From: Terriglobia bacterium
GTDB taxonomy: Bacteria; Acidobacteriota; Terriglobia; Versatilivoradales; Versatilivoraceae
Length of the DNA: 64,000 nt
Direction of reading: 5' to 3'
Assembly: GCA_046331665.1 (NCBI GenBank)
Contig: JAXLQK010000019.1
Coordinates: 20,692-84,691 of the forward strand
Within the stretch, counting starts at the first letter, position 1, and every line of letters starts with the position of its first letter. This document shows positions 3,649 through 38,090 of the stretch, one piece after another. The notes under the pieces are model-generated. The model was given only the letters and a program-made list of their open reading frames with translations. It had not been told where the DNA came from and searched no databases. The position numbers and the translations under genes were made by a program.

Positions 3649-4668
3649 ATGTCATTAAAGACTGGCAAGGTGTGGAGAGTTTGTGCAGGAATAGGGCTCC
3701 TCTTGTCGCTTCTGGCTTGTTCAAAAGCTCCGTCAGACGTCACTGTGAGTGATGCGATCAAAGGCCGCTTTTATTCAGACCCTCAACTCAAGAACGAAAA
3801 TATTCAAGTATCTGTCGCCAATGGGGAGGCGACGCTTTCGGGACAAGTGTCCGGCGATCCAGCCCATCAACAGGCTGTTAGCGTCGCCCAGGGGACGGAA
3901 GGAGTAAAAAAGGTGATTGACCAGCTCCAATTTCCCTCCTCTCCGGGTGGGATGCCACCGATGTCGTCCAATCAGCTTCAATCCGGCTCCTCACCGGGAG
4001 GAATGCCGCCGATGTCCTCGAATCAACAACAATCGATGCAATCCCCCCAATCCGGTGGTCCTGCGGCAGGGGGGAGTCCCGCCGCGGAAAACGTCCCCGG
4101 CAACAATCCCCCGGCACCAGAACCTCCGCCACCACCGCCACCTCGAAAATACACCATCCCATCGGGAACCAATGTTCGAATCCAGATGATTGATACGATC
4201 GATTCCAAGACCAGCAAGCCGGGAGATTCATTCCGGGCTTCGCTCGCCTCGCCCATTGTCTCGGGGAATGATGTGGTTGTCCGTCAAGGAGCGAATGTCG
4301 TGGTCAAGTTACTGGAATCCAAAACATCCGGCAAGTTCAAGGGACAGAGCGAGCTGGAAGTGACTCTCGATCAGATTGAGCTGAATGGGAAACGATACGA
4401 CGTGTCTTCTTCGTCAGTTCAGGAAGTGGGAAAATCCCGAGGAAAGGACACAGCCAAGAAAACCGGCCTGGGGGCGGCCATTGGAGCGGGGATTGGAGCG
4501 ATTGCTGGCGGCGGAAAAGGGGCCGCCATTGGGGCGGGAATTGGAGCTGGCGCTGGAGCCGGATCTCAGCTTTTTTTGAAAGGAAAGCAAGTCTCCATTC
4601 CCTCGGAAACCAAATTGGATTTCAAGCTGTCGGCTCCAGTGACCTTTACGCTTCCTCCGAAGAGTTAA
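3649..4668 (+). CDS. Lipoprotein with an N-terminal BON domain, a Pro/Gly-rich repeat linker and a C-terminal glycine-zipper domain
   Basis: There is a lipobox, LLSLLAC. The BON-like segment is VTVSDAIKGRFYSDPQLKNENIQVSVANGEATLSGQVS...GVKKVIDQL. SSPGGMPPMSSNQ occurs twice in tandem, followed by PPPPPPP. GAAIGAGIGA occurs twice 16 aa apart, forming a glycine zipper. Confidence 0.7.
   Translation: MSLKTGKVWRVCAGIGLLLSLLACSKAPSDVTVSDAIKGRFYSDPQLKNENIQVSVANGEATLSGQVSGDPAHQQAVSVAQGTEGVKKVIDQLQFPSSPGGMPPMSSNQLQSGSSPGGMPPMSSNQQQSMQSPQSGGPAAGGSPAAENVPGNNPPAPEPPPPPPPRKYTIPSGTNVRIQMIDTIDSKTSKPGDSFRASLASPIVSGNDVVVRQGANVVVKLLESKTSGKFKGQSELEVTLDQIELNGKRYDVSSSSVQEVGKSRGKDTAKKTGLGAAIGAGIGAIAGGGKGAAIGAGIGAGAGAGSQLFLKGKQVSIPSETKLDFKLSAPVTFTLPPKS
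3937..4026 (+). repeat. Imperfect in-frame tandem repeat (51-nt period) encoding SSPGGMPPMSSNQ twice
   Basis: 3937-3975 and 3988-4026 are near-identical copies at the DNA level. A second internal duplication, 4471-4500 versus 4519-4548, encodes the glycine-zipper unit. Confidence 0.8.
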
Positions 4669-4956: not shown

Positions 4957-7425
4957 ATGATCCGCAAGCCACCAAAGATCCTAAAGAGATTACTGTTATT
5001 CGGCAGCCTGCTCTTCTTGCCTCAGTCCCAAGGACCCTCTCTTCTCGGTCAGGGAGCGGCACCCCAAGCGAAGATTGAATTCAATCGGGATATCCGTCCA
5101 ATTCTATCTGACAACTGTTACACCTGCCACGGTCCCGACAAAGCCAACCGAAAGACCAGCCTTCGTCTGGATAACGAGGCGGGCATCTATGAGGATCTCG
5201 GAGGGTATCAAGCAGTTGTCCCGGGAAATCCGGATAAGAGCGAGTTATATCGCAGAGTTTCGTCTCAAGATGAGTCTCGACGCATGCCTCCTGTTTATTC
5301 GGGACGAACTCTGACAGCGAACCAGGTTGCCCTCATCCGTCAATGGATCGAACAAGGCGCTAAATGGCAAAAGCACTGGGTTTTTGTTCCTCCGGTTCGT
5401 CCCGAGCTTCCACAAGTCAATCAAAAGACATGGCCACGTAATGCGATTGATTATTTTGTCCTTGAACGATTGGAAAAGGAAGGGCTGACGCCATCCCCTG
5501 AGGCTCCGCCGGAAATCCTGATTCGTCGAGTGACACTCGATTTGACCGGCTTGCCCCCCTCCCCGCAGGAACTGGATGCTTATTTGTCGGACCATTCTCC
5601 CAATGCATACGAAAAGGTGGTTGACCGTTTGCTGCAGTCCTCGCGCTTCGGAGAACGAATGGCCATTCGTTGGCTCGAGGCTGCGCGTTACGCTGATACC
5701 AATGGCTATCAAACCGACGCAGAAAGGATCATGTGGCGCTGGAGAGATTGGGTAATTGACGCCTTTAACCGAAATATGCCATTCGACGAGTTCACGATTG
5801 AACAGATCGGCGGAGACTTGCTGCCGAATGCGACCACGGATCAGAAGCTGGCGACAGGTTTCAATCGGAATCATCGCGGGAATGGCGAAGGGGGAATCAT
5901 CCCCGAAGAATACGCAGTGGAATATGTTGCGGACCGTGTCGATACGGTCTCGACGGTGTGGCTCGGGTTAACTATGGGTTGCTCGCGTTGTCATGACCAC
6001 AAGTATGACCCCGTCACACAAAAAGAGTATTACCAGCTCTTCGCCTTCTTTAATAATGTCCCGGAGAAAGGCCATGCCAATAAATTCGGGAACTCACCGC
6101 CGGTCATCAAGACTCCAACGTCACAGCAGGAGGCGGAACTCTGGGACCTTGATCGGCGGCAGGTTGAGGCAGACAAGGTTTGGAAATCACTGCAACCCCA
6201 ATTGATTGCCGCGGAGCGAGGTTGGGAAAAGAACTTCAACCGATCGCGCCTGATCGACTGGTCCCTCACAGACGGCCTGGAAGCCTATTTCCCGTTGGAT
6301 GGAAACACCACGGATCGTTCCCGTAAAACCACCCCGGAGAAGACCGCTCAGCCTTCTTTCCGTGATGGTAATCCTGACTATGCGGCTGGACAAGTCGGGC
6401 TTTCCGGCTCCTTTGATGGGAAGCGCTTTGTCGATGCAGGGAACGTTGCTGATTTTGGATTCTATGACAAGTTTACAATGGCGGCTTGGATTTACCCACT
6501 TGACGAAAAGGGTGGCGCCATTCTGACGCGAACCAAAGACCTCAGCAAGGAGCAAGGCTACGGCCTCTATTGGGTGGATGGGAAACTCCAGGTAAACCTG
6601 GTTCAGCGTTGGCTGGATGATGCCCTGCGACTCGAAACTCAACAATCGTTTTCACCTGGACAGTGGTATCACGTGGCGGTTACCTATGACGCTTCCCGAA
6701 CAGCCGACTCCGTAAGGCTTTATGTCAACGGGAGCCCGGTTCAGTTGAAGGTCCTGCTCGATGATTTCTATCAAACATTCAAGATTGCTGAACCGTTTCG
6801 GATTGGAGGAGGGGGCGGCCCTGAAATCCGTTTCCATGGCTACATCGATGAAGTAAGAGTCTATAACCGGGTCCTGGCTCCGGACGAAATTCAACTCGTC
6901 TCTTGTAAAGATCGAATTAGCGAGATCGTTGCCATCCCCCCGGACCAGCGTACCGAAACGCAAAGCGCAAAACTAAGAGCCTACTTTGTCTCCACCGGTG
7001 CTGCCAAACCCATCCAGGAGGCTTACGCGAGGATCATCGCACTACAGCGAGAGCGCGAGAAACTCATCGACTCCATTCCGACGACTATGGTCATGCAGGA
7101 AATGAATCCTCCCCGGAATTCCTACATTTTGATTCGGGGTTCCTACGATCGTCATGGCGAGCGCGTTCAGCCTGCCGTCCCCGCCGTTTTCAACCCTCTT
7201 CCTGCAGGGCTCCCGGCCAATCGACTCGCTCTCGGGAAATGGCTTGTGGATCCCGCCAACCCCGTCACCGCTCGTGTAATCGTCAACCGGTTTTGGCAGA
7301 TGTATTTCGGAAATGGATTGGTCCGGACAGTCGAAAATTTTGGTTCCCAGGGGGAATGGCCGACCCACCCCGCGCTACTGGATTGGCTGGCGACCGAGTT
7401 TGTTCTAAATCGCTGGAACGTGTAA
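4957..7425 (+). CDS. PSCyt1 (c-type heme CxxCH) / DUF1549 (PSCyt2) / LamG-like lectin insertion / DUF1553 (PSD1) protein, N-terminal 822 aa, ending at a premature in-frame TAA
   Basis: A signal peptide is present. CYTCHGPDKANRK is the heme-binding motif, and the DUF1549 region follows. A concanavalin/LamG-like block (FDGKRFVDAGNVADFGFYDKFTMAAWIY...LYVNGSP...IDEVRVYNRVL) precedes DUF1553. The ORF stops at TAA 7423-7425, in the middle of the domain, relative to its paralogue at 14892-17594. Confidence 0.85.
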   Translation: MIRKPPKILKRLLLFGSLLFLPQSQGPSLLGQGAAPQAKIEFNRDIRPILSDNCYTCHGPDKANRKTSLRLDNEAGIYEDLGGYQAVVPGNPDKSELYRRVSSQDESRRMPPVYSGRTLTANQVALIRQWIEQGAKWQKHWVFVPPVRPELPQVNQKTWPRNAIDYFVLERLEKEGLTPSPEAPPEILIRRVTLDLTGLPPSPQELDAYLSDHSPNAYEKVVDRLLQSSRFGERMAIRWLEAARYADTNGYQTDAERIMWRWRDWVIDAFNRNMPFDEFTIEQIGGDLLPNATTDQKLATGFNRNHRGNGEGGIIPEEYAVEYVADRVDTVSTVWLGLTMGCSRCHDHKYDPVTQKEYYQLFAFFNNVPEKGHANKFGNSPPVIKTPTSQQEAELWDLDRRQVEADKVWKSLQPQLIAAERGWEKNFNRSRLIDWSLTDGLEAYFPLDGNTTDRSRKTTPEKTAQPSFRDGNPDYAAGQVGLSGSFDGKRFVDAGNVADFGFYDKFTMAAWIYPLDEKGGAILTRTKDLSKEQGYGLYWVDGKLQVNLVQRWLDDALRLETQQSFSPGQWYHVAVTYDASRTADSVRLYVNGSPVQLKVLLDDFYQTFKIAEPFRIGGGGGPEIRFHGYIDEVRVYNRVLAPDEIQLVSCKDRISEIVAIPPDQRTETQSAKLRAYFVSTGAAKPIQEAYARIIALQREREKLIDSIPTTMVMQEMNPPRNSYILIRGSYDRHGERVQPAVPAVFNPLPAGLPANRLALGKWLVDPANPVTARVIVNRFWQMYFGNGLVRTVENFGSQGEWPTHPALLDWLATEFVLNRWNV

Positions 7426-7443
7426 TCACTCCAGAAAGAGATC

Positions 7444-8157
7444 GTGATGAGTGCCACGTACCGTCAATCCTCAAAGATAACTCCGACCTCGATGCTGCGT
7501 GATCCGGAAAATCGGCTGTTGTCCAGAGGGCCGCGGCTGAGGCTTACGGCAGAAATGGTGCGCGACCAGGCCCTCGCGATCAGCGGGCTCCTCGTGGAAA
7601 AAATTGGCGGCCCCTCGGTAAAGCCTTATCAGCCTGAGGGTCTGTGGAAAGAGCTCAGCGGCGGGGACGACTATGAACCCGACAAAGGCGAAAACCTTTA
7701 TCGCCGAAGCCTCTACACCTATTGGAAACGGACAGCCGCCCCTCCCGCAATGATGACTTTTGATGCCCCCTCCCGCGAAACCTGCGCCGTCCGGCAGACG
7801 CGAACCAATACCCCTCTTCAAGCCCTGAACTTGATGAATGATGTGACTTATATGGAGGCGGCTCGGGCGCTGGCACAACGGACCATGAATGAAGCCGGCC
7901 AGACTCCTGAAGCCCGTCTGAAGCTGGCCTTTCGTCTGGCCACCTGTCGTTGGCCCACGACTGTGGAACTTCAAAAACTCCAGGATGGGTTCCAATTCCA
8001 ACTGGGTCAGTTTCGAGCCGATCCATCGGCCGCCTTGAAATTGGTTAGCGTTGGTGAATATCCGATCAATCAGAAGCTGGATATCGCAGAGCTGGCTGCT
8101 TATGCGACACAAGCCAGCCTCATCCTGAATCTGGATGAGACCATGAGTAAGGAATGA
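7444..8157 (+). CDS. C-terminal DUF1553 (PSD1) fragment, in frame with 4957-7425; the two are probably one gene separated by the TAA at 7423
   Basis: Same reading frame as the upstream ORF, since 7444-4957 is divisible by 3. The sequence across the stop, NRWNV*SLQKEIVMSATYRQSS, aligns with the paralogue's ENWNVKRMHKLIVMSATYRQSS. An AAGAGA-like RBS lies 6 nt upstream of ATG 7444. Confidence 0.6.
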   Translation: MMSATYRQSSKITPTSMLRDPENRLLSRGPRLRLTAEMVRDQALAISGLLVEKIGGPSVKPYQPEGLWKELSGGDDYEPDKGENLYRRSLYTYWKRTAAPPAMMTFDAPSRETCAVRQTRTNTPLQALNLMNDVTYMEAARALAQRTMNEAGQTPEARLKLAFRLATCRWPTTVELQKLQDGFQFQLGQFRADPSAALKLVSVGEYPINQKLDIAELAAYATQASLILNLDETMSKE

Positions 8158-8160
8158 ATC

Positions 8161-9627
8161 ATGAACCCTATTCGTGAACGAGAACTTCATCTGAACCGTC
8201 GTCATCTTCTGAGCTTCGCAGGCCGTGGGATCGGATTGGCCGCCTTGATGTCACTGCTCAATGAGGATATTCCCTCCGCTTTGGCTGGAGAGCTGCCCAA
8301 TTCCACCGCTACTTCCAGCGAGTTCCCCAACTTCGCTCCCAAAGCCAAACGCGTCATTTATCTCTTTCAATCCGGGGCTCCCTCGCAGCTTGAACTGTTT
8401 GATTACAAGCCCAAAATTGCAGAGCTTCGGGGCACGGAGCTGCCGGATTCCATCCGAAAAGGTCAGCGCCTGACTGCCATGACGTCAGCCCAATCGAGTT
8501 TTCCGGTGGTCCCCTCGCTTTTCAAGTTTGCCCAGCATGGACAGTCCGGGACATGGGTGAGTGAACTCATGCCTCACACGGCAAAAATCGTGGATGAGCT
8601 ATGCTTCATCAAGTCCATGCACACGGAGGCGATTAATCACGACCCGGCTATAACCTTTTTTCAAACCGGCGCTCAGTTGGCAGGGAGGCCCAGTATCGGT
8701 GCCTGGTTAACCTACGGGCTCGGGAGCGAAAACAAAGATCTGCCTGCGTTCGTGGTCATGATCTCTCAAGGCTCCGGAAATCCCGCGGATCAACCGCTTT
8801 ACGATCGCCTGTGGGGAAGCGGCTTTCTTCCTCCCCAATATCAGGGAGTGAAATTTCGTTCCGGAAGCGATCCGGTCCTTTACCTTTCGAATCCGCCGGG
8901 CATGTCAGATCCTTCACGCCGGCGTTTTCTCGATGACCTGGCCCAACTGAATCAGCTGAGCCTAAATGAATTTGGCGATCCGGAAATCTCCACTCGAATC
9001 TCCCAGTATGAGATGGCTTACCGGATGCAAACGTCCGTGCCTGAGTTGACAGACCTCTCGGGAGAACCCGCCCAGGTGTTTGAGCTTTATGGTCCAGAAT
9101 CGAAGAAGCCTGGAACGTATGCCGCCAATTGCCTATTGGCAAGGCGCCTCGCGGAAAGAGGGGTGAGGTTCATCCAGCTCTATCATCGGGGTTGGGACCA
9201 ACACTTTACCCTGCCAAAACAGATCGTGGGACAATCCCGGGACACGGACCAGGCTTCAGCAGCCCTGATCCTGGACCTCAAACAACGTGGGCTGTTGGAT
9301 GACACACTGGTGGTTTGGGGCGGGGAGTTTGGAAGAACCATCTATTGTCAGGGGAAATTAACCGCTGATGATTACGGCAGGGATCATCACCCCCGGTGCT
9401 TTACAGTTTGGCTGGCCGGCGGAGGGATCAAGTCCGGGATTACCTTTGGGTCCACCGATGATTACTGTTACAACATCACGGAGAATCCGGTTCACGTCCA
9501 TGATCTCCATGCCACGATGCTCCATTGCTTGGGAATTGACCATACTCGACTCACCTACAAGTACCAGGGACGCTACTTCCGATTGACCGACATTAGCGGC
9601 GAAGTGGTGAGCAAAGTGTTGACTTAA
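8161..9627 (+). CDS. DUF1501 protein (sulfatase/alkaline-phosphatase fold) with a Tat signal
   Basis: [20 protein letters not shown] is a Tat motif. Conserved DUF1501 blocks are present ([10 protein letters not shown]..., [27 protein letters not shown]). The start lies 3 nt after the stop of the upstream PSCyt gene, so the two are translationally coupled. Confidence 0.85.
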
Positions 9628-9662: not shown

Positions 9663-10517
9663 TCATCCCTTTCCGTAGAGCTGGCGATAGCGTTCGAAGT
9701 ATTGGCGAACCTGCTCCATGATTTGCTGGTATTCCGGATCACTCCGCAGTTTCTCAAAATTCTTGTCCCGCTGGAACCAGGGGTAATTATGGTTCCCCAA
9801 TTCCATACTTCGGCGCAACCAAGACAAGGCTTGGCTTCTATCACCCAGCAGGGAATAGACTGAAGTGATCCAATAGGCCAAATCTCCATCAATGACATCT
9901 TCCCGGTTGGGGCTTAATACCTTGGGGTCTATTTTCTGTCGATTGCCTTGAGAGGCATACAAGAATCCAAGGAAATACAGCGGTGCATCGTCCCCCTTCG
10001 GACCGCTAAGTTCTTTGGCTTTGAGGAGTATTGGTTCTGCTTCGGCAAGTTTCCCCTGGTAATAGAGAAACTCGCCAAGATAAGCCATGGCTTTGTATTG
10101 GTCGGGAGAATTGGCTAATATGCGCCGCATTTCCTCCTCTGCCTCTTTGACCTTTCCCAGGTAAAGCAGCATGCGGGCATGCATCCAGTGGACTCGATGG
10201 GACGTTGGATTGAGTTCCATACTGCGTAGGTATTCTCTCTCAGCCAGATCGATTAAACCGGTATAGTGATAAGCATAACCCAGCATATCGTGCGCCCAGT
10301 CGGAATTTGGGGCCATACCATTCCCCTTCTTGAGCTTTTCAATGGCCTCCACATTACGGCCAAGTTGAATATAGATTCCGCCCATTGATATGTAGACGTC
10401 TGCAAGACGCGGATTCAATTGCATGGCTTTTTGAGCCATTCGCTCCGCATACGCCAAGTTTCCCCGAGCGTTATCAATAAAGTTCGCGGCCTCCATCATG
10501 CAAACATCCGCCAGCAA
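9663..10517 (-). CDS. TPR-repeat protein; probably the displaced C-terminal TPR domain of the upstream Ser/Thr kinase
   Basis: At least six TPR-like repeats. The ORF-track start is a TTG with no RBS. The same frame stays open upstream to 10559 ([16 protein letters not shown]...), overlapping the kinase stop. Confidence 0.6.
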   Translation of the reverse strand: MLADVCMMEAANFIDNARGNLAYAERMAQKAMQLNPRLADVYISMGGIYIQLGRNVEAIEKLKKGNGMAPNSDWAHDMLGYAYHYTGLIDLAEREYLRSMELNPTSHRVHWMHARMLLYLGKVKEAEEEMRRILANSPDQYKAMAYLGEFLYYQGKLAEAEPILLKAKELSGPKGDDAPLYFLGFLYASQGNRQKIDPKVLSPNREDVIDGDLAYWITSVYSLLGDRSQALSWLRRSMELGNHNYPWFQRDKNFEKLRSDPEYQQIMEQVRQYFERYRQLYGKG

Positions 10518-10543
10518 TGTATAAGCTTGAACAAATGTGGGGT

Positions 10544-12148
10544 CTAATTTGATGGCTTCTCAAGAAGGGTCTGCCCTCGCTGGAGGCTTTCCAGGCGAGA
10601 ACGCATGGCGTACTCATTCCAATAAAATCGGGCTTGGATATAGAGATTATAGGCATCCGGAGAATGTGTCATCGGAGCCGTCATACAAGCTTGCTCGTCT
10701 TCCGTCACTGATACACTCAATCCTTCGACCACCTTCTGGGCTACTTGATCTTGGAACATCAGCATATCTTTGGCCCGCAAATCATACCGTTGGGCCCAAC
10801 GGGTTGACCGACTCTTAGGGTCACTGAGAAGAACCGACACCCGCATGACATCGCCAACGCGCTGAAAGGTTCCTTCCAGAACGGACTCTACATCAAGCTC
10901 CTGGGCGACCTGGGCCGGATCGGCTGGCGCCTGCACATATTTCAACACCGAGCTCGTAGGCCGGACTGCCAGGTTCTGCAAGGTGGCCATCCGGCTGATG
11001 ATGGCATCGGACATCCCAATCCCCCACGCCTGGTTCTCTTCTTTCCCAGCAAGATCCCGGAACGGGAGCACCGCTACTGTTCGCACCGCGGACTTTGCAA
11101 TGGCCGGCGGAGAATTGGGAACGGGATTGCCCTGCCTTGACTCGAAAAACCATGCCGCGACACTGAGGATCAGAATGGCAAGGGAAGCGACCACTGCCCA
11201 AATTCGGAAACGAGATCCTTTCGACCTTTTGTTTGGTCCTGTAGAGTTTGAAGCCGCCCTCAAGCGGGTGGACTCTAGATCACGTTTCAGGCGTCTCAGG
11301 TCCCCCCTTAAGTCGGACGCGGACTGGTAGCGCAGCTCACGATCCTTCTCGAGGGCTTTGAAGATGATTCGCTCCAACTCGGCCGGTAATTCTGGATTAA
11401 TGGTTCTTGGCGATACGGAGGCGCGGTTAAGGATAGAGTCAAAGAGGATGGCGGGGGTATTCCCATTAAAAGGTGGACCACCCGTAGCCATCTCATAAAG
11501 CACAGCCCCAAACGAAAAAAGATCGGAACGTCCATCCAATTCTTCTCCCCGAGCTTGCTCAGGAGACATATAGGCGATGGTGCCGATGGTTGATCCCGGG
11601 CTGGTTAATTGCGGATCGCGCATCGACACCGTCAAGAGGTCTGTAGGTGCCGCAGTTTTCGCGTCTTTTTCTTTGGAGGTCGCTAATTTTGCCAATCCAA
11701 AATCCAAAAGTTTGACTTGAGCCCGTTGCGTCACAAAAATATTGGCGGGCTTGATATCCCGATGAACAATTCCCTTGCTGTGGGCCGCCTCGAGCGCGTC
11801 GATGATTTGAATCGCCAAATCTAATAACGGCTCGATCTTGAGGGGGTTGCCGTCAATGAAAGAGCGGAGGGTCATGCCCTCCATCAATTCCATGACAATA
11901 AAGGGTTGGCCTTCGGACTCGTCAACCTCATGAATGGTACAGATGTTGGGATGGTTCAATGCCGAAGCGGCTCTCGCCTCACGTTGGAATCGTTCCAGCG
12001 CCTGCTTGTCTTGGGCGAGGTCCCCGGGTAGAAACTTCAACGCCACTTGCCGGTTAAGTTTGAGGTCCTCAGCCAGATACACAACCCCCATTCCACCACC
12101 GCCAAGTTTTTCAACGATCTGATAATGGGTAACAGTTCTGCCGATCAT
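10544..12148 (-). CDS. Hanks-type Ser/Thr protein kinase with a TM helix and an extracytoplasmic TolB_N-like domain
   Basis: Kinase motifs are present: [13 protein letters not shown]...[26 protein letters not shown] segment, [19 protein letters not shown], follows. [30 protein letters not shown] matches the TolB_N-like domain, which in related kinases precedes TPRs. The gene ends PSN* in a different frame from the TPR ORF that follows. Confidence 0.85.
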
Positions 12149-12349: not shown

Positions 12350-13258
12350 GTGGCAAAGTTGCTTTCAATCGGCACTTGGGCCTATGCCTTTGGGCCCTAC
12401 CAGTCAAATCCTGTTCCCTTTGAAACCGTATTGCAGAAGCTGGGCGAGCTTCATTATGACGGCGTGGAAATCGGGGCCTTTAAACCCCATATCCATCCTG
12501 ACGATTACCCCACCCTCGCAGATCGTCAGCGCGTGAGATCCATGATTCAAGAAAACCAGTTGCGTGTCTCCGGACTCGCGGCTGATTTCTGGGGGGATAA
12601 AGGACCTGGCACGGACGCCGCACAAGAAAACGACTACTATCTTCACCTCTTTGAAAAAAACTTGAAGCTGTGCGCTGACCTGGGCTCTCCCAATATTCGG
12701 GTGGATACGGTCAGCGGCCCCGATGGTGTACCGGGAATAGATGGGAAGACCGCCCGGAAGCGAATTATTGAATTATGGAAGTTGTGTGCCGAAATGGCCC
12801 GGCGGAAGGGAGTCAAGGTTGTCTGGGAATTCGAACCCGGTTTCCTCTTCAACAAACCTTCTGAAGTCGCCCAACTGGTGGCTGATGTCAATCATCCTAA
12901 CTTCACGGTGCTCTTCGACACCTGCCATGCTTATATGTGCAGTGTCGTCGGCGCGCGCCAAGCCGGAAATAAAGAACTCCTGAAAGGCGGAGTGGTCGAA
13001 TTTGCTCAAATGCTAAAGGGAAAGATCGGACATGTCCACGTCATTGACTCGGACGGGACGCTCCATGGAGAGGAGACCAGCACCCATCGCCCGTTTGGTG
13101 AAGGATTCATCCATTTTGAGGAAGCTCTGGACGCCATTTTTCATGGCGCAGGATATCAGGGCGAGTGGTTGACTGTGGATTTGTGCTTCTGGCCTGAAGC
13201 GTGGGAGGTTACGGCCAAAGCCAAGGAGTTTCTTAGTCCCTACCTGGCCAAGTATTGA
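12350..13258 (+). CDS. Sugar phosphate isomerase/epimerase (xylose-isomerase-like TIM barrel)
   Basis: The AP-endonuclease-2/XylA-like TIM-barrel pattern is present (HYDGVEIG, VDTVSG, VWEFEPGF, DTCHA, HVHVIDSDG). The ORF track starts at 12326. I prefer GTG 12350, which has AAGGAGG 8 nt upstream. Confidence 0.7.
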   Translation: MAKLLSIGTWAYAFGPYQSNPVPFETVLQKLGELHYDGVEIGAFKPHIHPDDYPTLADRQRVRSMIQENQLRVSGLAADFWGDKGPGTDAAQENDYYLHLFEKNLKLCADLGSPNIRVDTVSGPDGVPGIDGKTARKRIIELWKLCAEMARRKGVKVVWEFEPGFLFNKPSEVAQLVADVNHPNFTVLFDTCHAYMCSVVGARQAGNKELLKGGVVEFAQMLKGKIGHVHVIDSDGTLHGEETSTHRPFGEGFIHFEEALDAIFHGAGYQGEWLTVDLCFWPEAWEVTAKAKEFLSPYLAKY

Positions 13259-13380
13259 TCAATCCCGTATTCCGGGGGATTTCACCTTGGCTCGATGAAT
13301 GTACCCTGTCACCCGTTCCATATCCGATCTGGTCTGATAAAGTGTGTGACGGTCTGCCCGGCGACCAAACCGGCAAATGG

Positions 13381-14826
13381 TCAGGCCAAAAGTTTGGGAA
13401 CGACATTGCCTGCGACATCGGTCAGCCGGAAATCACGCCCTTGATGGTGATAGGTCAGCTTCTCATGATCAAAACCCAAACATTGCAGGATCGTGGCATG
13501 CAAGTCGTGCACATGGATGCGGTCTTCCACGACGTTGAGGCACAGGTCATCGGTTTTGCCAATCACTTGCCCCCCTTTAATGCCTCCCCCTGCCATCCAG
13601 ATACTAAAGGCAAAGGGGTGGTGATCACGTCCTTCACTTCCTTTCTTGGGGTTCCGGCTCTCAACTAACGGAGTTCTCCCGAATTCCCCGGCCCAAATCA
13701 CCAGGGTTGAATCGAGCAATCCACGCTGCTTCAAATCCTTGAGTAAGGCGGCTACGGGCTGGTCGGTAATATCGCAATTCTTCTTCAAATGACTGACCAA
13801 TTCTGCGTGGTCATCCCAGCTCGCATGCATGATCTGGACAAAACGAACTCCCCGTTCCACCATCCTGCGAGCCAGCAGGCAATTCGAGGCAAAGGGTTTT
13901 GTGGGTTCCTTGTCGACCCCGTACATCTCGAGGGTCTTGGGAGACTCCTTGGAGAAATCAAGGAGTTCCGGGGCCGCTGCCTGCATCCGGAATGCAAGTT
14001 CGTAAGACGCAATTCGGGAGGCGATTTCAAAATCCCCGCTTTCCATGTAATTGGCCTCATTTAAATCTCGAATCACGTCGAGAGTTGACCGCTGGAGCTG
14101 ACGATTCAGGCCTTGAGGATTGGAAAGATAAAGCACGGGATCACCGCTGTTGCGGAAGGTAACGCCCTGGTAGGTAGAGGGCAGAAATCCGCTGGACCAA
14201 TTGGCACTTCCGGCACTGGTGCCGACTCCCGAGCTCAGGACCACAAATCCCGGTAGATTTTGAGATTCACTCCCCAAGCCATAAGTCACCCAGGCTCCCA
14301 TGGAGGGGCGCCCCACCAGTGGTGAGCCGCAATTGAGCATTAACTGCCCCGGATGATGGTTGAATTGCTCCGTATACATGGAGCGGATCATGCAGATATC
14401 ATCGGCACAGGTCGCGAGATGTGGAAGGTAGTCGGAAATTTCGATGCCGCTCTGCCCGTAAGGCTTAAACTCTCTCGGACTGGCCCAAACCCGGGCATTT
14501 GGCTTAATGAAAGCCAGTTTTAAATTCTTGGTCATCGATTCCGGGAGCGGGTGGCCGTCCCACTTTCGCATTTCTGGCTTCGGATCGAAAAGATCCAGCT
14601 GGCTGGGGGCTCCTTCCATGAAGAAAAAGATGACATTCTTGGCCTTGGGGGCAAATTGAGGAGGTTTCGGCTGCATGGGATTGACGCTCGGCAAAGTGCC
14701 CGCCAGGGCAGTCGTGAGCCCCTCACTCGCCAACAATTGCCATAAGCCAATGGCCCCAACACCCCCGACGCATTCCGCGAGAAACTTACGACGGGAATGA
14801 ATTTTCTGGAATTCCTGGAAATTCAT
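13381..14826 (-). CDS. DUF1501 protein (sulfatase-like fold) with a Tat signal; paralogue of 8161-9627
   Basis: SRRKFLAECVGGVGAIGL is a Tat motif. The same conserved blocks occur (VIWAGEFGRT, DHHPFAFSIWMAGGGIKGG). GGGAGG lies 5 nt upstream of the ATG. Confidence 0.85.
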   Translation of the reverse strand: MNFQEFQKIHSRRKFLAECVGGVGAIGLWQLLASEGLTTALAGTLPSVNPMQPKPPQFAPKAKNVIFFFMEGAPSQLDLFDPKPEMRKWDGHPLPESMTKNLKLAFIKPNARVWASPREFKPYGQSGIEISDYLPHLATCADDICMIRSMYTEQFNHHPGQLMLNCGSPLVGRPSMGAWVTYGLGSESQNLPGFVVLSSGVGTSAGSANWSSGFLPSTYQGVTFRNSGDPVLYLSNPQGLNRQLQRSTLDVIRDLNEANYMESGDFEIASRIASYELAFRMQAAAPELLDFSKESPKTLEMYGVDKEPTKPFASNCLLARRMVERGVRFVQIMHASWDDHAELVSHLKKNCDITDQPVAALLKDLKQRGLLDSTLVIWAGEFGRTPLVESRNPKKGSEGRDHHPFAFSIWMAGGGIKGGQVIGKTDDLCLNVVEDRIHVHDLHATILQCLGFDHEKLTYHHQGRDFRLTDVAGNVVPKLLA

Positions 14827-14891
14827 CGATCCTCCCCTGTAAGCGCTTGTCTTCCTATGAACATCGCCCCACGTTTGAGCTCCTGAACTTT

Positions 14892-17594
14892 TTAACCTCG
14901 TGTGATGAACTCATCCAGGTTAAGCAGAGCCCTAGAAATGCTAACCCAGATTGCGGCCTCGGTTGCATCGACCCCTTCAACTCCATGTGCCGCATAGAGA
15001 CTCTCTGCCACATCCGGGTTCTCCTTCAAAAAGGCTTTCTGGTCATCATAATAGCGAACCAACCTCTCCCGCTCCGCAGGTTTGGGGGGCCGGGCAAGAC
15101 AGAGTCGGAATGCATAGTCAATCCGCTCGTTCAAGCTGCCCGGTTTTTCACGCAAGACCCGGGTTGCCAGACCCTGAGCCGCTTCAAAGAAGACAGGGTC
15201 GTTCAGAAGATTGAGCGCTTGCAAGGGAGTTGTGGAACGCTCCCGGCGACTGCAAACGAGTAACGAGTTCGGAGCATCGAAATTCATCAATTCGGGGTAT
15301 GGCGTCGTTCGCTGGAAAAAGACATAGAGTCCTCGTCGATACCGGGCCGTCCCTTCACTTTCTTTCCACTTGACGCTCATCGCATAGCCCAGGTCGGTCA
15401 CCCCCTTCGGAATGACAGGGCGGACGCTTTTTCCTCCGATGGTCGGGTCCAGCAGTCCGCTCGTCGCCAGCGCATTATCCCGAATCAATTCCGCCGGCAA
15501 ACGCAAACGCGATTGCCGGGCGATCCACTTGTTATAGGGATCCCGTGCTTCCAGCTCTTTTCTCGTTTTGGAAGATTGGCGGTAAGTCGCTGACATCACA
15601 ATCAGCTTATGCATGCGCTTGACGTTCCAATTCTCCCTGACAAATTCGGCCGCCAACCAATCGAGCAATTCTGGATGCGTCGGGCGCTCCCCTTTGATTC
15701 CAAAATCCTCCGAGGTTTCCACAATCCCATGGCCGAAAAATTCCTGCCACATCCGGTTCATCGTGACCCGGGGCGTTAAGGGATTTTCAGAGGAGACTAG
15801 CCAGCGGGCAAACCGAAGACGGGCAGGTTCATTTGTGACAGGAAAGGGCGGCAAGACCGCCGGCGTGCCAGGAGAAACTTCAATCCCCGGTTGCAAGTAA
15901 TCCCCTCTGATCAAGACGTGGGTCTTGGGGGGATTTGGATTTTCGGTAATCGTGGGCGCTTCTGTCAGACTCGGGTACTGTTCGGAAAGCTGGTCAAGTT
16001 TTTCACCAAGCTCCTTGAACTTGAGCTCATCGTAACGATCTTTCCCCTCGGCAATGGAATAATATCGGACAATGTGGTCGGTAAGCCTGTCTTGCTCCTT
16101 CTGCGTTCGTTCGGTTGGATTCTTCAAAAGAATCTCTTGACCGTGATCCAACATTTTGCCGACAGTGTCCCAAGACACATCGTATGGAACGTTGATGCCG
16201 GGATGAGTGGAGGCCTCCAGGGTCTTCTTCTCCCAGTCACCCTGAATTTCGGCAACCTTATATTCCTCCAGCAAGGCCTTCCGTTTCTTGTCGTACTCGG
16301 GTTTGCCCTGAAGATAGCCCCCTATTTCTCCAGGAGACGGAGCTTCAACATTAACTTCACGCGCTGTATTAAAAAAGGCGAGGAGCTGATAGAACTCCCG
16401 CTGGCTGATGGGATCGTATTTGTGATCGTGACAACGAGCACAGCCGATAGTTAACCCCATCCAGGTGGTCCCTGTCGTGATCGTACGGTCGAGCACTTGT
16501 TCGACGCGAAATTCCTCGTTATCGACCCCGCCCTCCCGGTTCGTCAGAGTGTTGCGATTGAAACCCGTGGCGATTTTTTGATTAAGCGTTGCGCGCGGCA
16601 ACTGATCCCCGGCAATCTGTTCGATGGTAAACTCGTCGAAGGGTAAATTGCGATTGAGCGCTTCGATCACCCACTGCCGGTATCTCCATGCGTAGGGCCG
16701 AACATTGTCCTTCTCATACCCATCACTATCCGCATAGCGAGCCAGATCGAGCCAATGGCGGGCCCACTTTTCGCCGTAGTGGGGGGAATCGAGAAGGCGA
16801 TTCACGAGCCTTTCATAGGCATCGGGGGAATCATCCGCAACAAAGTTCGACACTTCCTCGGGAGTCGGAGGCAGACCCGTAAGATCAAAGCTTAATCGCC
16901 GAATCAAGGTGATCCGATCGGCTTCAGGAGAAGGCTGGACCTGCTCCGATTCCAGCTTACTTAAAATAAAGGCATCGATTGGATTTCTTATCCAGGCTGA
17001 GTTACCGACACGAGGCAAGGGAGGCTGCTTGAGGGGCTGAAAAGCCCAATGCGACCTTCGAGGATCTTCACTGGCCCTTGCGATGGGCTTTGCCCCATCC
17101 TCCGACCAGTCGACACCTTGATCAATCCATGCCCTCAGCAATCCAACCTGTTCGGCCGTCAAGCGATCTCCGGCCGGGGGCATGACCTTCCCCTCGTCCG
17201 CTCCTGCCACCAAGCGAATCAGTTTGCTCCCTGCACTGTCCGCCGGCTTGATCACGGCACCAGAGTTTCCGCCATCCAGTGCATGTTGACGACTGTCAAG
17301 CCGGAGGCCGCTCATTTGCATCTGAGGCCCGTGACAGGACAGGCAGCGACTGCTCAAAATCGGTTGGACGTCGCGCTTGAAATCTATTTTCTGAGTGGCT
17401 GCCGGAGGCAAGTCCGGTTTCGCAGCTAGCTGTGTCTGAGCCTTGTAGCCCCCGACACATAGCAGGAGCAATGGCAAAACTGTCAGGTTGCAGCGTAGGC
17501 CTCGGATACTCAGGGCAGATCGAAATCCATCCATCTCGTTATTTGTTTTCTCCCAATCTAGCGGCGCCCGTTTCTTCTGCTTTTGGACTGCCAT
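14892..17594 (-). CDS. PSCyt1 (CxxCH heme) / DUF1549 / DUF1553 protein, intact 900-aa paralogue
   Basis: RCLSCHGPQMQMSGLRLD is the heme-binding region. The DUF1549 and DUF1553 blocks are collinear with 4957-8157 but lack the LamG insertion. A signal-like N-terminus is present. Confidence 0.85.
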   Translation of the reverse strand: MAVQKQKKRAPLDWEKTNNEMDGFRSALSIRGLRCNLTVLPLLLLCVGGYKAQTQLAAKPDLPPAATQKIDFKRDVQPILSSRCLSCHGPQMQMSGLRLDSRQHALDGGNSGAVIKPADSAGSKLIRLVAGADEGKVMPPAGDRLTAEQVGLLRAWIDQGVDWSEDGAKPIARASEDPRRSHWAFQPLKQPPLPRVGNSAWIRNPIDAFILSKLESEQVQPSPEADRITLIRRLSFDLTGLPPTPEEVSNFVADDSPDAYERLVNRLLDSPHYGEKWARHWLDLARYADSDGYEKDNVRPYAWRYRQWVIEALNRNLPFDEFTIEQIAGDQLPRATLNQKIATGFNRNTLTNREGGVDNEEFRVEQVLDRTITTGTTWMGLTIGCARCHDHKYDPISQREFYQLLAFFNTAREVNVEAPSPGEIGGYLQGKPEYDKKRKALLEEYKVAEIQGDWEKKTLEASTHPGINVPYDVSWDTVGKMLDHGQEILLKNPTERTQKEQDRLTDHIVRYYSIAEGKDRYDELKFKELGEKLDQLSEQYPSLTEAPTITENPNPPKTHVLIRGDYLQPGIEVSPGTPAVLPPFPVTNEPARLRFARWLVSSENPLTPRVTMNRMWQEFFGHGIVETSEDFGIKGERPTHPELLDWLAAEFVRENWNVKRMHKLIVMSATYRQSSKTRKELEARDPYNKWIARQSRLRLPAELIRDNALATSGLLDPTIGGKSVRPVIPKGVTDLGYAMSVKWKESEGTARYRRGLYVFFQRTTPYPELMNFDAPNSLLVCSRRERSTTPLQALNLLNDPVFFEAAQGLATRVLREKPGSLNERIDYAFRLCLARPPKPAERERLVRYYDDQKAFLKENPDVAESLYAAHGVEGVDATEAAIWVSISRALLNLDEFITRG

Positions 17595-17995: not shown

Positions 17996-18742
17996 TCAGT
18001 ATTGGTATTGTGCTTGTTTAACTTTGAGTCGGAAGTCAAAACCTTCGATACGAATCACTTTGCACATCTCGTACAGCCGGGAGCGCAAACGTGTCCCGAT
18101 ACGGTCTTCGAGACTTTCTTCCTTTGACAATACGGTCCCATTGGAAAGCGTTTTGGGTTCCCTTAGTTGGTCGTCAAAGTTTGTGGTGATGATGGTTGTT
18201 AAGCGCCGATTATATCTGGAATTAATGATATAAGAGACCGTCTCCCGAACCCATTCGGTAGGTCGTTCAGCCCCCAGGTCATCTAGCACCAGCAGATCAC
18301 TGTTTAAGACGGGCTCAAGAATTTCCAGCTCGGAGGACTGAGAAACAGGGTTATAGGAATTCTGAATCCGTTTGAGCAACTCACGAAAATCACAGAACAA
18401 ACCCCGAGCCCCCACCTTCTGAATGATTTCCCGCAAAATCGACACAGCCAAGTGGGTCTTGCCCACACCGCAAGGCCCCAGAATCAACAGGCCACAATCC
18501 ACCAGAGGATATTCTTCTACAAACTTCAGCGCGGCCGCCTTAACCAGTTTAAGGCGTTCCGTGATCGGATTAAAGTTTTCGAATGAACAATGCTCATAGC
18601 GTGCGGGGAGATGAGCAAGTTCAATCAATCTCTCTAATTTTCGTTGCTGCACACAGGCACAAGGAACGACCCCCTGCGGTTCGGCATCTTCGAGATACCG
18701 CCAACCGGTCCCTCCACAGATTTGACATTCTGCAGTTAGCAT
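17996..18742 (-). CDS. DnaC/IstB-like AAA+ ATPase (putative helicase-loader-type protein) with an N-terminal four-Cys motif
   Basis: Walker A LILGPCGVGKTHLAVSI and Walker B LLVLDDLG are present. The N-terminus carries CQICGGTGW...VPCACV, which is zinc-ribbon-like. It starts 9 nt downstream of hspR. Confidence 0.65.
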   Translation of the reverse strand: MLTAECQICGGTGWRYLEDAEPQGVVPCACVQQRKLERLIELAHLPARYEHCSFENFNPITERLKLVKAAALKFVEEYPLVDCGLLILGPCGVGKTHLAVSILREIIQKVGARGLFCDFRELLKRIQNSYNPVSQSSELEILEPVLNSDLLVLDDLGAERPTEWVRETVSYIINSRYNRRLTTIITTNFDDQLREPKTLSNGTVLSKEESLEDRIGTRLRSRLYEMCKVIRIEGFDFRLKVKQAQYQY

Positions 18743-34403: not shown

Positions 34404-37400
34404 TCAGGGAAGAAGTTCCAGCAGAATCGCCCTTATCGAAGGAATGATTTCCGAGTTAAGTAACCCCGCGGTTTGTACCCGGAGAGCCCCCGAAGGCATG
34501 ACTGACGTCTCCGGATGAGAAGAGACAAATTCAACCACCCGCTGCGCCTGCACAGGGGTCTTTTCATGGAACTTAATAGAGATAGTGTCTCGTTCTCTTT
34601 CAATACTTTGGACCAAAGCTCTCTGAGCCACCAACCGCAAACGAACAAAATCGATCAGGTTTACAACTTCTTTCGGTACTCCCCCATAACGGTCTTCCAA
34701 TTCAATAAGTAATTCATCCATTTCCCGTTCATGTTTCAATGAAGAGATTCTCTTGTAAATACTTAACCGCTGACGTTCGTCGGCAATATAATCTGTAGGA
34801 ATTTTCACCGGAATCTTGAGGTTGATCTGAGTTTGAATCTCAGGTACGACCTCATTGCCCTGCAATTCTTCTATTGTCCTCTCCAAGATTTGGCAATAGA
34901 AGTCGAAGCCAAGGGCATTGATATGACCATGCTGCTCTCCGCCCAAGAGGTTTCCCGCACCGCGAAGCTCCAAATCAAGCGCCGCTACCTTAAACCCTGA
35001 TCCCAGTTCGCTGAATTCCTTTAGAGCCGCCAAGCGTTGGCGCGCTACTCCGGTCAGCGCTTTGTCCGGGGGCGTCAGGAGGTATGCGTAGGCTCTGCGG
35101 TTAGAACGTCCTACTCTCCCACGCAATTGATAAAGCTGGGCCAACCCAAATCGATCCGCACGATTTACAATAAGAGTATTGACCAAGGGGATGTCCAAAC
35201 CATTTTCTATAATCGTAGTAGAAACTAAGACATCTGCCTCATGCCTTACAAACTTCAGCATGGTTGCCTCTAATTCCTTTTCCCCCATTTGACCGTGCCC
35301 TACAAGGATTCGGGCCTTAGGGCAGAGTTTGCTGATCATCGAAGCAACGGAGTAGATGGATAGCACTTTGTTATGTACAAAATAAACCTGCCCTCCACGG
35401 CTCAATTCCTGCTCAATGGCCGCCTGAATCACCTGTTTATTAAATGGTACTACAAATGTCTGAATAGACAGTCTATCGCGTGGTGCGGTTTCTATGACCG
35501 ACATATCTCTCATTCCCATTAACGACATATGTAGTGTTCTGGGAATTGGTGTGGCGGTCATAGTCAGGGTATCCACGTTAATTTTCAATTGTTTCAGCTT
35601 TTCCTTATGGCTTACGCCAAACTGCTGTTCTTCGTCAACGATCAACAATCCGAGATCCCTGTACTGGACATCTTTGGACAATAGCCGATGCGTTCCGATG
35701 ATAATATCAACCTGGCCGGCGTCTATTTTCTTGGTGATTTCCACTTGATCCTTTGGAGTTCGGAATCGGCTCAACATTTCGATGTTCATTGGAAACGCGT
35801 TGAAGCGCTGCTTGAACCTGAGGTAGTGTTGATAGGACAGAACGGTGGTGGGAGCCAGGACTGCCACCTGCTTTCCATCAAATACGGCCTTAAAGGCCGC
35901 TCTCATTGCGACCTCTGTTTTTCCAAACCCAACATCCCCGCAAAGCAGCCTGTCCATGGGGACTTCGGACTCCATGTCTTTATAAACATCCTGAATGGCG
36001 GAAGCCTGGTCCGGAGTTTCCACGAATTCAAAGACATCTTCAAACTCTTTGTGCCAATGTCCTTGTGGGGAAAAGGCATAACCCGGTGATATTTTTCTGC
36101 CCGCATATAATTTGAGCAAATCGTCAGCCATGTCCCGCAAGGACTTCTTGACCCGGCTCTTCGTTTTCACCCAGGTTGTTCCACCAAGTTTGTCCAATTG
36201 TGGGCGCGCCCCTTCGGCACTGCTGTATTTCTGAACTAGGTCCAACCTTTCCAGGGGAACATAGATCTTGTCGTCCCCCAGATAAGTGATAACCATGAAT
36301 TCACGCCCAGCGCCTTCGGCAAACATCTGCTTCACCCCAAGAAATCGTCCAATTCCATGGTCAATGTGGACCACATGATCTCCAGGCTTCAATTCTCTTA
36401 AGTCCGAGATGAACGTCGTGCTCTTTTGCTTCGAGCGTACCGGCCTGTCGAGTAACTCCACTTCATCGAAGACATCTGTTTCCCCAAGGATGAGGATGCC
36501 TTCGAGTCTAACCTCAAATCCTTCATATACTTCTCCACATACTACGAAAGTAGCTAATTGAACTTCACTCAGGCCCGGGGAGGTTCCCTCTTTCTGGGAT
36601 TGAAAAGCAGGACTTACGTCCAAATCGTACTCCTTGAGAATCTCATAGACTCTCTCTGCTTTTCCCAAGGTGCCTTGGACCAGCACTTGAACCGTACCTT
36701 GTTGCGCTCCACGCTCGATATCCCGAACTAGTTCTCTTAGATTCCCGTGGTACTTCCTTGAGGGACGGATATCGCAAACAATTCGCACGGTATCTTTCCC
36801 CTCTTGAAATGGACTGCTGTCATCCGCGGATTCAGAATCTGGACTTACTTCGTGTGGCCTCTCCCTTCGCAGGACATCTGTAGCCAATTCATTTTCATGC
36901 TGAGGCAAGCCCTCGCTCTTCCGGGGATGTAACGCGTCGTGATCTCTCCGGGTGGATCGGGGCTCTTTTTGAAACAAGGAATCCTCTTGGAAGGTGCCCA
37001 ACTGATCCAGCAGAACTGAGGAGTGCCGGGAAGTTAAGCCGGACAGCTCCTCAAAGCTAATGAAGAGCTCTTCTATGGCGGCGGATGGAATGCCCCGAGA
37101 TCTCAATGCCGCCTGCTCTTTGAGACATTTCTCGTACCAGTGCTGGTAATCTGATTGGAGATCCAACGGTTCATCGATAACCAAAAAGAACTCGGGAATG
37201 AAATCGAACACGGTGTGCGGAAGTGTCTGGGTCATGGGGAGGGCGTATTCGACCCCTTGAAAAAATTCCCCGTTCAGGGCACAGGTGACCTGATGATCGA
37301 GGAAATCCTGTGAGGTCTCGTTCCCCAGCCTCAATTTGGCCTGCTCTCCCCATTCCTTGAGAGCAGAGGGATCCAGGAGGATTTCCCGCATTGGGACACA

Positions 37401-38090
37401 GAGCACTTCTTGCACGGGGCCAATGGACCTCTGCGATTTGACTGAAAACTCCCGTAAGGACTCGACTTCATCCCCGAAAAATTCGATTCGACACGGATTC
37501 TCGGAATCAGGGGGAAAAACATCCAAAATCCCGCCTCTTACGGAGTAGGAACCATGGCTGTTGACGGGCTCCTCATGAACATAACCGGCGGCCAGCAGGT
37601 AGTTGGTGATCGTCTGTAGAGAGTATTCGGTACCAACCTTCAGACGGGGTACAGCAGTAAAGATCTCGCGAAGGTTTGGGACCCGGCTGAGAACCGCGGT
37701 CAGTGGACAAAGCAGGATGTCAACGGTCGACTCAAAGACCCTCCATAAAGAGAGAGCCCTTTCCTCCAAAACCTCCGCATGAGGGGATAGACCACTATAG
37801 GCATCAGGTTCGAGCGCAGGAAAGACGGACAACCTCGCTCCATTTCGGTTGGAAAATACATCAAGATAGAAGGCTGCTGCGTTACGGAGAGAGTCGAGAT
37901 TGGAACTATCCCTTCCAATGTAGAGGATGGGTTTCTTGAGCTGATGATGGAGCCCTGCCAGGACCGCCGGTTTTGCTGATGGGGTAATCCCCGTCAAGAC
38001 GAATCTTGAGGCACCGGATTCCAACTGACGGAGAATCTGATCAATCCCCGTTGCCCGAATTAGTTTTTCAGTCCAGTCCCGCGATGACAT
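34404..38090 (-). CDS. mfd: Transcription-repair coupling factor Mfd
   Basis: 1228 aa. UvrB-homology N-terminus, DEAD-box SF2 translocase motifs (LLCGDVGFGKTEVA, DEEQQFG), and a TRCF C-domain. Confidence 0.95.
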   Translation of the reverse strand: MSSRDWTEKLIRATGIDQILRQLESGASRFVLTGITPSAKPAVLAGLHHQLKKPILYIGRDSSNLDSLRNAAAFYLDVFSNRNGARLSVFPALEPDAYSGLSPHAEVLEERALSLWRVFESTVDILLCPLTAVLSRVPNLREIFTAVPRLKVGTEYSLQTITNYLLAAGYVHEEPVNSHGSYSVRGGILDVFPPDSENPCRIEFFGDEVESLREFSVKSQRSIGPVQEVLCVPMREILLDPSALKEWGEQAKLRLGNETSQDFLDHQVTCALNGEFFQGVEYALPMTQTLPHTVFDFIPEFFLVIDEPLDLQSDYQHWYEKCLKEQAALRSRGIPSAAIEELFISFEELSGLTSRHSSVLLDQLGTFQEDSLFQKEPRSTRRDHDALHPRKSEGLPQHENELATDVLRRERPHEVSPDSESADDSSPFQEGKDTVRIVCDIRPSRKYHGNLRELVRDIERGAQQGTVQVLVQGTLGKAERVYEILKEYDLDVSPAFQSQKEGTSPGLSEVQLATFVVCGEVYEGFEVRLEGILILGETDVFDEVELLDRPVRSKQKSTTFISDLRELKPGDHVVHIDHGIGRFLGVKQMFAEGAGREFMVITYLGDDKIYVPLERLDLVQKYSSAEGARPQLDKLGGTTWVKTKSRVKKSLRDMADDLLKLYAGRKISPGYAFSPQGHWHKEFEDVFEFVETPDQASAIQDVYKDMESEVPMDRLLCGDVGFGKTEVAMRAAFKAVFDGKQVAVLAPTTVLSYQHYLRFKQRFNAFPMNIEMLSRFRTPKDQVEITKKIDAGQVDIIIGTHRLLSKDVQYRDLGLLIVDEEQQFGVSHKEKLKQLKINVDTLTMTATPIPRTLHMSLMGMRDMSVIETAPRDRLSIQTFVVPFNKQVIQAAIEQELSRGGQVYFVHNKVLSIYSVASMISKLCPKARILVGHGQMGEKELEATMLKFVRHEADVLVSTTIIENGLDIPLVNTLIVNRADRFGLAQLYQLRGRVGRSNRRAYAYLLTPPDKALTGVARQRLAALKEFSELGSGFKVAALDLELRGAGNLLGGEQHGHINALGFDFYCQILERTIEELQGNEVVPEIQTQINLKIPVKIPTDYIADERQRLSIYKRISSLKHEREMDELLIELEDRYGGVPKEVVNLIDFVRLRLVAQRALVQSIERERDTISIKFHEKTPVQAQRVVEFVSSHPETSVMPSGALRVQTAGLLNSEIIPSIRAILLELLP

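Follow-up and report, generated by a model that had tools for sequence, protein, structure and literature searches.

Two adjacent open reading frames (ORFs) on the minus strand of a 64-kb stretch of DNA from an uncultured, soil-type Terriglobia bacterium (contig JAXLQK010000019.1; the whole 64,000-nucleotide stretch is called the window here) raise the question of whether they are separate genes or the two halves of one. The upstream ORF encodes a putative serine/threonine protein kinase, and the downstream ORF encodes a protein built of tetratricopeptide repeats (TPRs). An initial annotation, based on the letters of the sequence, had proposed that the two are a single gene broken by a one-nucleotide frameshift, had noted a TAA stop codon 3 kb upstream, and had offered local assembly error or relaxed selection as possible causes. 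The evidence assembled below indicates that the kinase and TPR ORFs are almost certainly one gene, broken in this record by the deletion of one nucleotide, and this statement holds alike for a biological and a technical origin of the deletion.

Both ends of the break lie where they were first placed: the kinase ORF ends at 10544, and the TPR frame is closed upstream by a TGA (10562-10560) and is open from 10559, where it reads EAIKLDPTF. Relative to the kinase frame, the TPR codons are set one base to the 5′ side (a −1 shift), and the two open frames share 16 nt. In the kinase frame the overlap reads GAG AAG CCA TCA AAT TAG, and one base added anywhere in 10561-10547 fuses both frames. The last four codons of the 5′ fragment (KPSN) are out-of-frame readthrough.

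The TPR frame also lacks start signals at its opening, as had been claimed for it. There is no start codon between 10559 and 10517 in this frame, and the earliest candidates, TTG at 10517 followed by ATG at 10499 and 10496, lie 14-21 codons past the frame opening. No convincing Shine-Dalgarno sequence is present at any of these three codons. The TTG that had been taken as the start of the TPR ORF is indeed the first possible one, but GenBank begins the protein MFN8006459.1 (278 aa) at ATG 10499 instead.

Table. Features of the broken kinase gene and of the two neighbouring lesions; positions are those of the window.
Feature	Position	Strand	Remarks
Broken gene, 5′ fragment (GenBank MFN8006460.1)	10547..12148	-	534 codons; ORF including stop, 12148..10544
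Kinase frame stop, TAG	10546-10544	-	end of the kinase frame
Broken gene, 3′ fragment	9666..10559	-	298 codons encoding TPR solenoid (residues 531-828 in homologues); stop 9665-9663
Overlap zone of the two open frames	10544..10562	-	from TGA 10562-10560 to TAG 10546-10544
Missing-nucleotide site	10556..10561	-	window GAGAAG(CC); homologues GAGGAAGCC, GAAGAGGCC, GATCAAGCC or GAGAAAGCC
Protein kinase domain, PF00069	11324..12124	-	Pfam, 162.3 bits (cut-off 31.7); residues 9-275, aligned to positions 1-253 of the 263-position profile
Single transmembrane helix, residues 314-335	11144..11209	-	Kyte-Doolittle maximum 2.4 at residue 316; helix 319-338 in homologue model
Periplasmic alpha/beta module, residues ~355-477	10718..11086	-	strands and helices 356-477 in P0001 model
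TPR end-of-group domain, residues 228-282 of 3′ fragment	9714..9878	-	NCBIfam NF047558, 64 bits (cut-off 32)
Second lesion, in-frame TAA	7423-7425	+	in the 1066-codon PSCyt1/PSCyt2/Laminin_G_3/PSD1 gene, 4957..8157
Third lesion, SGL-family C-terminal stub	13265..13384	-	40 codons; tblastn matches L002 SGL residues 283-322 only, 75% identity

The strongest evidence for a single gene comes from its relatives. The joined protein (...QTLLE-K-AIKLDP..., 828 aa) was searched against 5.8 billion proteins, and its best matches, P0001, P0002 and P0005, are full-length proteins from single ORFs, each exactly 828 aa long and aligned at 76-79% identity with 100% coverage. The remaining matches among the 120 listed are single proteins of 800-932 aa with kinase and TPR Pfam domains. 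The exception, and the only short match among them, is P0008, the window's own 534-aa fragment, which is placed on a 126-kb contig and entitled 'MAG: serine/threonine-protein kinase [Terriglobia bacterium]' (MAG, metagenome-assembled genome). When three single-ORF homologues were compared with the window by tblastn, residues 1-531 fell in the kinase frame (12148..10556) and residues 531-828 in the TPR frame (10559..9666), contiguously and with E = 0.

The same picture holds at the DNA level. Each of the six closest relatives (74-79% amino acid identity) carries the gene in one uninterrupted 828-codon ORF, and at five syntenic loci whose flanks were compared, taken from the DNA of four close relatives (L001-L004) and from a GTDB representative genome (L005), residues 1-828 of the kinase-TPR protein lie in one frame. 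These five loci share an AP_endonuc_2 gene upstream, on the other strand, and a DUF1501 gene with a 1066-aa PSCyt1/PSCyt2/Laminin_G_3/PSD1 gene downstream, also on the other strand. Homologous loci with separate kinase and TPR genes were looked for among the 119 other listed homologues and the six closest loci, and none was found.

The missing base itself is visible in a MAFFT alignment of the window gene (2486 nt) with the four genes of L001-L004 (2487/2430 nt). The sole internal indel in its 2487 columns is a 1-nt gap in the window, and it falls at 10561-10556, where restoring a nucleotide had been suggested as a way to rejoin the frames. At the gap the window reads CTTGA-GAAGCC, compared with CTCGAGGAAGCC, CTCGAAGAGGCC, CTCGATCAAGCC and CTTGAGAAAGCC in the homologues. 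The 8-nt form of the site is GAGAAGCC and the 9-nt forms are GAGGAAGCC, GAGAAAGCC and GAGAAGGCC, and the exact lost base cannot be assigned within the hexamer GAGAAG. The longest run at the deletion site is 2 nt (3 nt in the intact form), and there is no long homopolymer.

A structural model places the break in the middle of a folded domain. For P0001, an AlphaFold2 model that drew on 54 family members has a mean predicted local distance difference test score (pLDDT) of 82, with values >90 throughout the solenoid. Its order is a kinase domain, a transmembrane (TM) helix at 319-338, an alpha/beta module at 356-477 and an unbroken helical solenoid at 483-826. Because residue 531 lies inside helix 519-535 of this model, the break severs a helix within a continuous domain. 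Conservation in the family extends across the junction region, where D536 and F539 are invariant.

The encoded protein has the parts that were expected of it, with one qualification. The 5′ fragment holds the kinase domain, one TM helix, the periplasmic alpha/beta module and the first ~1.5 TPR-like helices. All kinase motifs are intact (GGGGMG at residue 16, VALK at 35, HRDIKPAN at 129, DFG at 149 and SPE at 195), and together with the profile score these catalytic motifs identify the product as a predicted Hanks-type (eukaryotic-like) Ser/Thr protein kinase. The initial annotation had described the layout as kinase, TM helix, TolB_N-like domain and TPR. Kinase, TM and TPR parts are all present, but the Pfam scan gave no match to TolB_N at E<=0.01; the alpha/beta module is seen in the model, and the 'TolB-like' label stems from Joint Genome Institute (JGI) names of homologues. 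A match to the NCBIfam CadC model (residues 298-531 against CadC 151-369; E = 1e-7) scores 31 bits, far under its cut-off of 400.

Pfam matches in the 3′ fragment include TPR_2, TPR_17, TPR_8, TPR_19 and others, and its TPR end-of-group domain is the C-terminal cap conserved in this family (GNHNYPWFQRDKN...), in which G785, N786, N788, P790, W791, F792, D795 and N797 are invariant. No signal peptide or TM segment was found in this fragment (maximum hydropathy 1.09). A sequence search of the PDB with the periplasmic part returned generic TPR matches only, and Foldseek matches to the complete model were mostly kinase domains; neither search identified a specific solved structure related to the sensor part. 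The literature likewise yielded nothing specific on this kinase architecture in Acidobacteria. Full-length colinearity, the TPR repeats and the end cap assign the gene to the Terriglobia receptor kinase family as judged from its sequence; it lacks the uninterrupted ORF of that family and, at least in this record, reads as a disrupted member.

Two further lesions lie close by and bear on the cause of the break. The TAA codon that had drawn attention earlier is a real in-frame stop. The ORFs 4957..7425 and 7444..8157 share one frame, span 3201 nt together and align without gaps to the 3201-nt genes of L002-L004. All three of these homologues have AAA (Lys) at the position of the TAA, within the conserved motif W-N-V-K-A-L-Q-K, and one continuous tblastn high-scoring segment pair crosses the stop. 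By this alignment the TAA is a nonsense substitution in the PSCyt/PSD1 gene. No fragments of this gene (4957..8157) were found in the protein collection, and the source may well have treated it as a pseudogene.

The third lesion is the remnant of a deletion, 2.8 kb from the frameshift site. Compared with L002 and L005, the window is without the PMT_2 gene and SGL codons 1-282 (~2.7 kb). The SGL stub that is left abuts the stop of a DUF1501 gene. In relatives the SGL gene is independently damaged: at L003 it lies in two frames (7872-8838), and at L004 (8348-8894) an internal deletion removes approximately residues 72-201. The gene seems dispensable in the clade, to judge from these independent lesions.

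Whether the kinase gene is broken in the organism or only in the record is a second question. We somewhat favour a genuine and evolutionarily very recent mutation, perhaps still polymorphic in the sampled population. The window is otherwise clean, with ten genes colinear in one frame with the syntenic loci. Pfam domain matches and typical lengths were found for 27 of the 30 further window ORFs, and every adjacent pair that looked suspicious consisted of separate genes. Only one frameshift was encountered among ~40 genes checked in the window. Given this clean remainder, the assembly is therefore not generally indel-prone. The TAA, for its part, is a substitution, and it is unlikely as a random error because only ~4% of random substitutions yield a stop. 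The nearby stub of the 2.7-kb deletion, the degradation of SGL in L003 and L004, and the multi-copy nature of the kinase family also fit a real mutation.

Several observations weigh against this preference. The TPR part is conserved like the kinase part, with ratios of nonsynonymous to synonymous substitution rates (dN/dS) of 0.07-0.12 and 0.08-0.13, respectively, and amino acid identities of 75-80%, so that a very recent mutation and a consensus error look alike. The 894 nt downstream of the frameshift contain no further stop or indel, and neither excess amino acid divergence nor an added indel or stop was seen downstream of the frameshift or of the TAA; of these two downstream stretches, the TPR part alone allowed a dN/dS estimate, because synonymous divergence (dS) is saturated in the PSCyt comparisons. 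Because the TPR part is conserved to this degree and carries no second lesion, the frameshift is either very recent or not biological. The source record is a MAG contig, whose consensus may mix strains or hold isolated indel errors. Moreover, chance would place two point lesions of a 64-kb stretch within 3.1 kb of each other in about 10% of cases, and their clustering is not significant. In more distant relatives the kinase is unlinked to PSCyt/DUF1501, so no pathway logic joins the lesions.

Sequences from the same species, which might have shown the intact or the broken form, did not turn up. A search of genome_contigs gave only the 79%-identical L005, a gapped exact pattern across the junction had 0 matches in metagenome_contigs, and a pattern across TAA 7423-7425 also had 0 matches. 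The contig index gave no entry for P0008 on exact look-up, and all members of the 90% cluster to which the neighbouring DUF1501 protein belongs are 87-92% identical and hence from other species.

The suggestion that selection is relaxed on this island as a whole fares unevenly against these data. The third lesion nearby lends it slight support, but distant kinase homologues are not linked to PSCyt/DUF1501, dN/dS of the TPR part is ~0.1, and no further lesions lie downstream. A functional linkage of the kinase with PSCyt/DUF1501, by which both lesions would represent the loss of one pathway, was also considered and is unsupported, homologues that are 58-64% identical having unrelated neighbours.

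The most serious alternative to a genuine mutation is that the organism has the intact 828-codon gene and that the base was lost by assembly, polishing or consensus error, with the TAA perhaps likewise an artefact or a product of strain mixing. We regard this as a substantial but somewhat less likely possibility. It accords with the MAG origin of the sequence and with the state of the gene, which is otherwise colinear and has its 894 downstream nucleotides preserved under purifying selection, just as an error in an intact gene would look. The site itself, GAGAAG, is a short purine repeat in which a base of a 2-3 nt run is losable; such a run is nevertheless only 2-3 nt long, and a single frameshift was seen in the ~40 genes checked. 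Nor are the neighbours easily explained in this manner, as a nonsense substitution is hard to obtain by random error and the deletion stub is structural. Related public long-read assemblies of the clade do carry many errors of this kind.

One such assembly is that of L001 (ENA ERZ25039488 contig_39052), which has 5-6 frame changes within single genes at 12515-17210 and 18685-19697, leaving DUF1501 in 5 pieces, PSCyt in 6 and RhaT in 3. It looks like an unpolished long-read assembly, in contrast to the clean window.

A different kind of explanation is that the split is a gene fission with two working products, a truncated and perhaps deregulated kinase without its TPR sensor and a 278-aa TPR protein from ATG 10499. 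MFN8006460.1 and MFN8006459.1 are both annotated as proteins, the catalytic motifs of the kinase are intact, and re-initiation is conceivable, as ATG 10499, located 45 nt past the kinase stop, is preceded at a distance of 8-13 nt by a weak GGCGGA. Set against this, the model places the break in mid-helix in a continuous solenoid, the first 14 codons of the open frame hold no start, no clear Shine-Dalgarno sequence is present, and a TPR piece without an export signal cannot reach the periplasm, where the model topology locates the TPRs. None of the 119 other listed homologues and none of the six closest loci is split, and overall fission appears highly improbable. It is also very unlikely that an incipient fission is under way, in which a deregulated 534-aa membrane kinase and a re-initiated cytoplasmic TPR protein would, with the PSCyt/PSD1 nonsense codon and the PMT_2/SGL deletion, mark a locus under active remodelling. 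Two genuinely separate genes can be rejected, given the lack of any split homologue among those listed, the mid-helix break, and a TPR part that has no start, ribosome-binding site or signal peptide.

Programmed −1 ribosomal frameshifting or transcriptional slippage that joins the frames into a full-length protein is exceedingly improbable and was rejected: the TPR frame does lie in −1 with a 16-nt overlap, and a rare spontaneous slip at A-AAT before the TAG could yield traces of product, but the overlap holds no X_XXY_YYZ heptamer, no A/T run is long enough for slippage, the 136 nt that surround and follow the site form no stable fold (minimum free energy −29.3 kcal/mol against a shuffle mean of −34.5 kcal/mol, z = +1.37, with 186 of 200 shuffles folding at least as well), and the arrangement is not conserved, all homologues being single-frame across the junction.

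The history of the locus may be sketched as follows. The ancestral gene, running from 12148 to 9663 on the minus strand, encoded an 828-residue receptor-type Hanks Ser/Thr kinase, in which a cytoplasmic kinase domain is followed by one TM helix, by a periplasmic alpha/beta module and by a TPR solenoid of ~350 residues that ends in the conserved cap. If the missing base is a real and recent mutation, as we somewhat favour, this lineage then lost one nucleotide within GAGAAG (10561-10556). Translation in the kinase frame ends 5 codons after the lesion, at residue 534. The product is predicted to be a 534-aa membrane kinase that keeps its catalytic motifs and lacks 36% of the protein (~300 residues), nearly all of the periplasmic TPR domain, which with the end cap is presumed to be the ligand- or partner-binding sensor part.

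The 298 codons of the 3′ piece would be silent or would yield, from ATG 10499, a mislocalised cytoplasmic fragment. We infer that this piece is a dead remnant, because its first 14 codons offer no start and it carries neither a signal peptide nor a TM segment, so that any product would stay cytoplasmic. The kinase family is massively paralogous in Terriglobia, with at least 8000 candidates in the protein search and two copies within 6 kb at one locus (L012). Since the family is so highly multi-copy, loss of one paralogue is probably near-neutral for the cell.

A number of other features were observed along the window and its syntenic counterparts. Paralogous pairs of PSCyt/PSD1 and DUF1501 genes, ~40-50% identical, flank the kinase gene at 4957-9627 (+) and 13381-17594 (-), in convergent and divergent orientation, and this arrangement of flanking pairs is kept in L002-L005. 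In L001, L003 and L005 the MR_MLE and BON genes are separated by a RhaT-family transporter gene, in place of which the window has only a 113-nt spacer (3536-3649). Between a MerR-family and a PilZ gene, downstream of DnaJ, is an ORF of ~250 aa for an IstB_IS21-like ATPase (17996-18742, minus strand). Its position is conserved in L001, L003 and L004, and for this reason a resident AAA+ gene is more probable than an active IS21 element.

Elsewhere, a segment of 845 nt (38091-38934) between a divergent Mfd-like gene (34404..38090, minus strand) and a hydrolase gene (38935.., plus strand) contains only a 72-aa ORF. No tRNA or Rfam match was found in it, and the Rfam and tRNA scans of the whole window were likewise empty. 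Two small overlapping ORFs of 109 and 150 aa at 27644-28388 (minus strand) have no Pfam match. The longer of these may be non-coding, its G+C content at third codon positions (GC3) being 0.40 compared with ~0.57 elsewhere. Finally, the record that holds L005 (CAWBAT010000005.1, 1.76 Mb) is titled 'uncultured Acidimicrobiia bacterium', yet it carries a Terriglobia-type kinase locus with full synteny and 79-94% protein identity to the other loci, and the taxonomic label of this MAG looks doubtful.

For annotation, the consequence is that MFN8006460.1 (534 aa) and MFN8006459.1 (278 aa) are halves of one gene and should be recorded as a single frameshifted locus. Real lesions would document, on a small scale, how paralogues are lost from the very large set of receptor kinases in Terriglobia; technical ones would amount to two consensus errors flagged in an otherwise clean MAG contig. 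Either outcome leaves the understanding of these kinases unchanged.

Among known systems, the closest are the receptor Ser/Thr kinases of ~820-830 aa from Terriglobia/Acidobacteriota, exemplified by P0001, P0002 and P0005 and named by JGI 'TolB-like protein / PilF / predicted Ser/Thr protein kinase'. They have the same domain order (kinase, TM helix, 'TolB-like' module, TPR, end cap) and are colinear with the window gene over 828 codons. The closest of these relatives also share its neighbours, AP_endonuc_2 on one side and DUF1501 with PSCyt/PSD1 on the other. Unlike them, the window copy is one nucleotide short and is read as ORFs of 534 aa and 278-298 aa.

PknB of Mycobacterium tuberculosis and Stk1 of Staphylococcus aureus resemble this family in kinase fold and motifs (Foldseek template-modelling scores of 0.80-0.89 for the homologue model, at 36-38% identity), and both groups combine one TM helix with an extracytoplasmic sensor domain. 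The sensors differ, consisting of PASTA repeats in PknB and Stk1 and of an alpha/beta module followed by a TPR solenoid in the window family. The PknB/Stk1 profile NF033483 aligns with residues 8-294 only, at 326.5 bits and below its cut-off of 450, and no PASTA match occurs in the window protein, so that identity as a PASTA kinase was rejected. The C-terminal domain of Escherichia coli CadC shows a weak resemblance that runs from the TM helix through the alpha/beta module to the first helices, with a similar layout of an alpha/beta subdomain followed by a helical one. The output of CadC is a DNA-binding domain whereas that of the window protein is a kinase, and the likeness is one of resemblance only.

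Single-base frameshifts that split a gene into adjacent overlapping ORFs are well known and ordinary in draft genomes. The locus described here shares with the frameshift pseudogenes and split-gene artefacts of drafts and MAGs the same single-base indel, the overlapping adjacent frames and the downstream piece without start signals. The split is an ordinary pseudogene or sequencing slip, an already known phenomenon rather than a new kind of gene arrangement, and differs from other such cases only in that a nonsense codon and a deletion stub accompany it within 8.5 kb.

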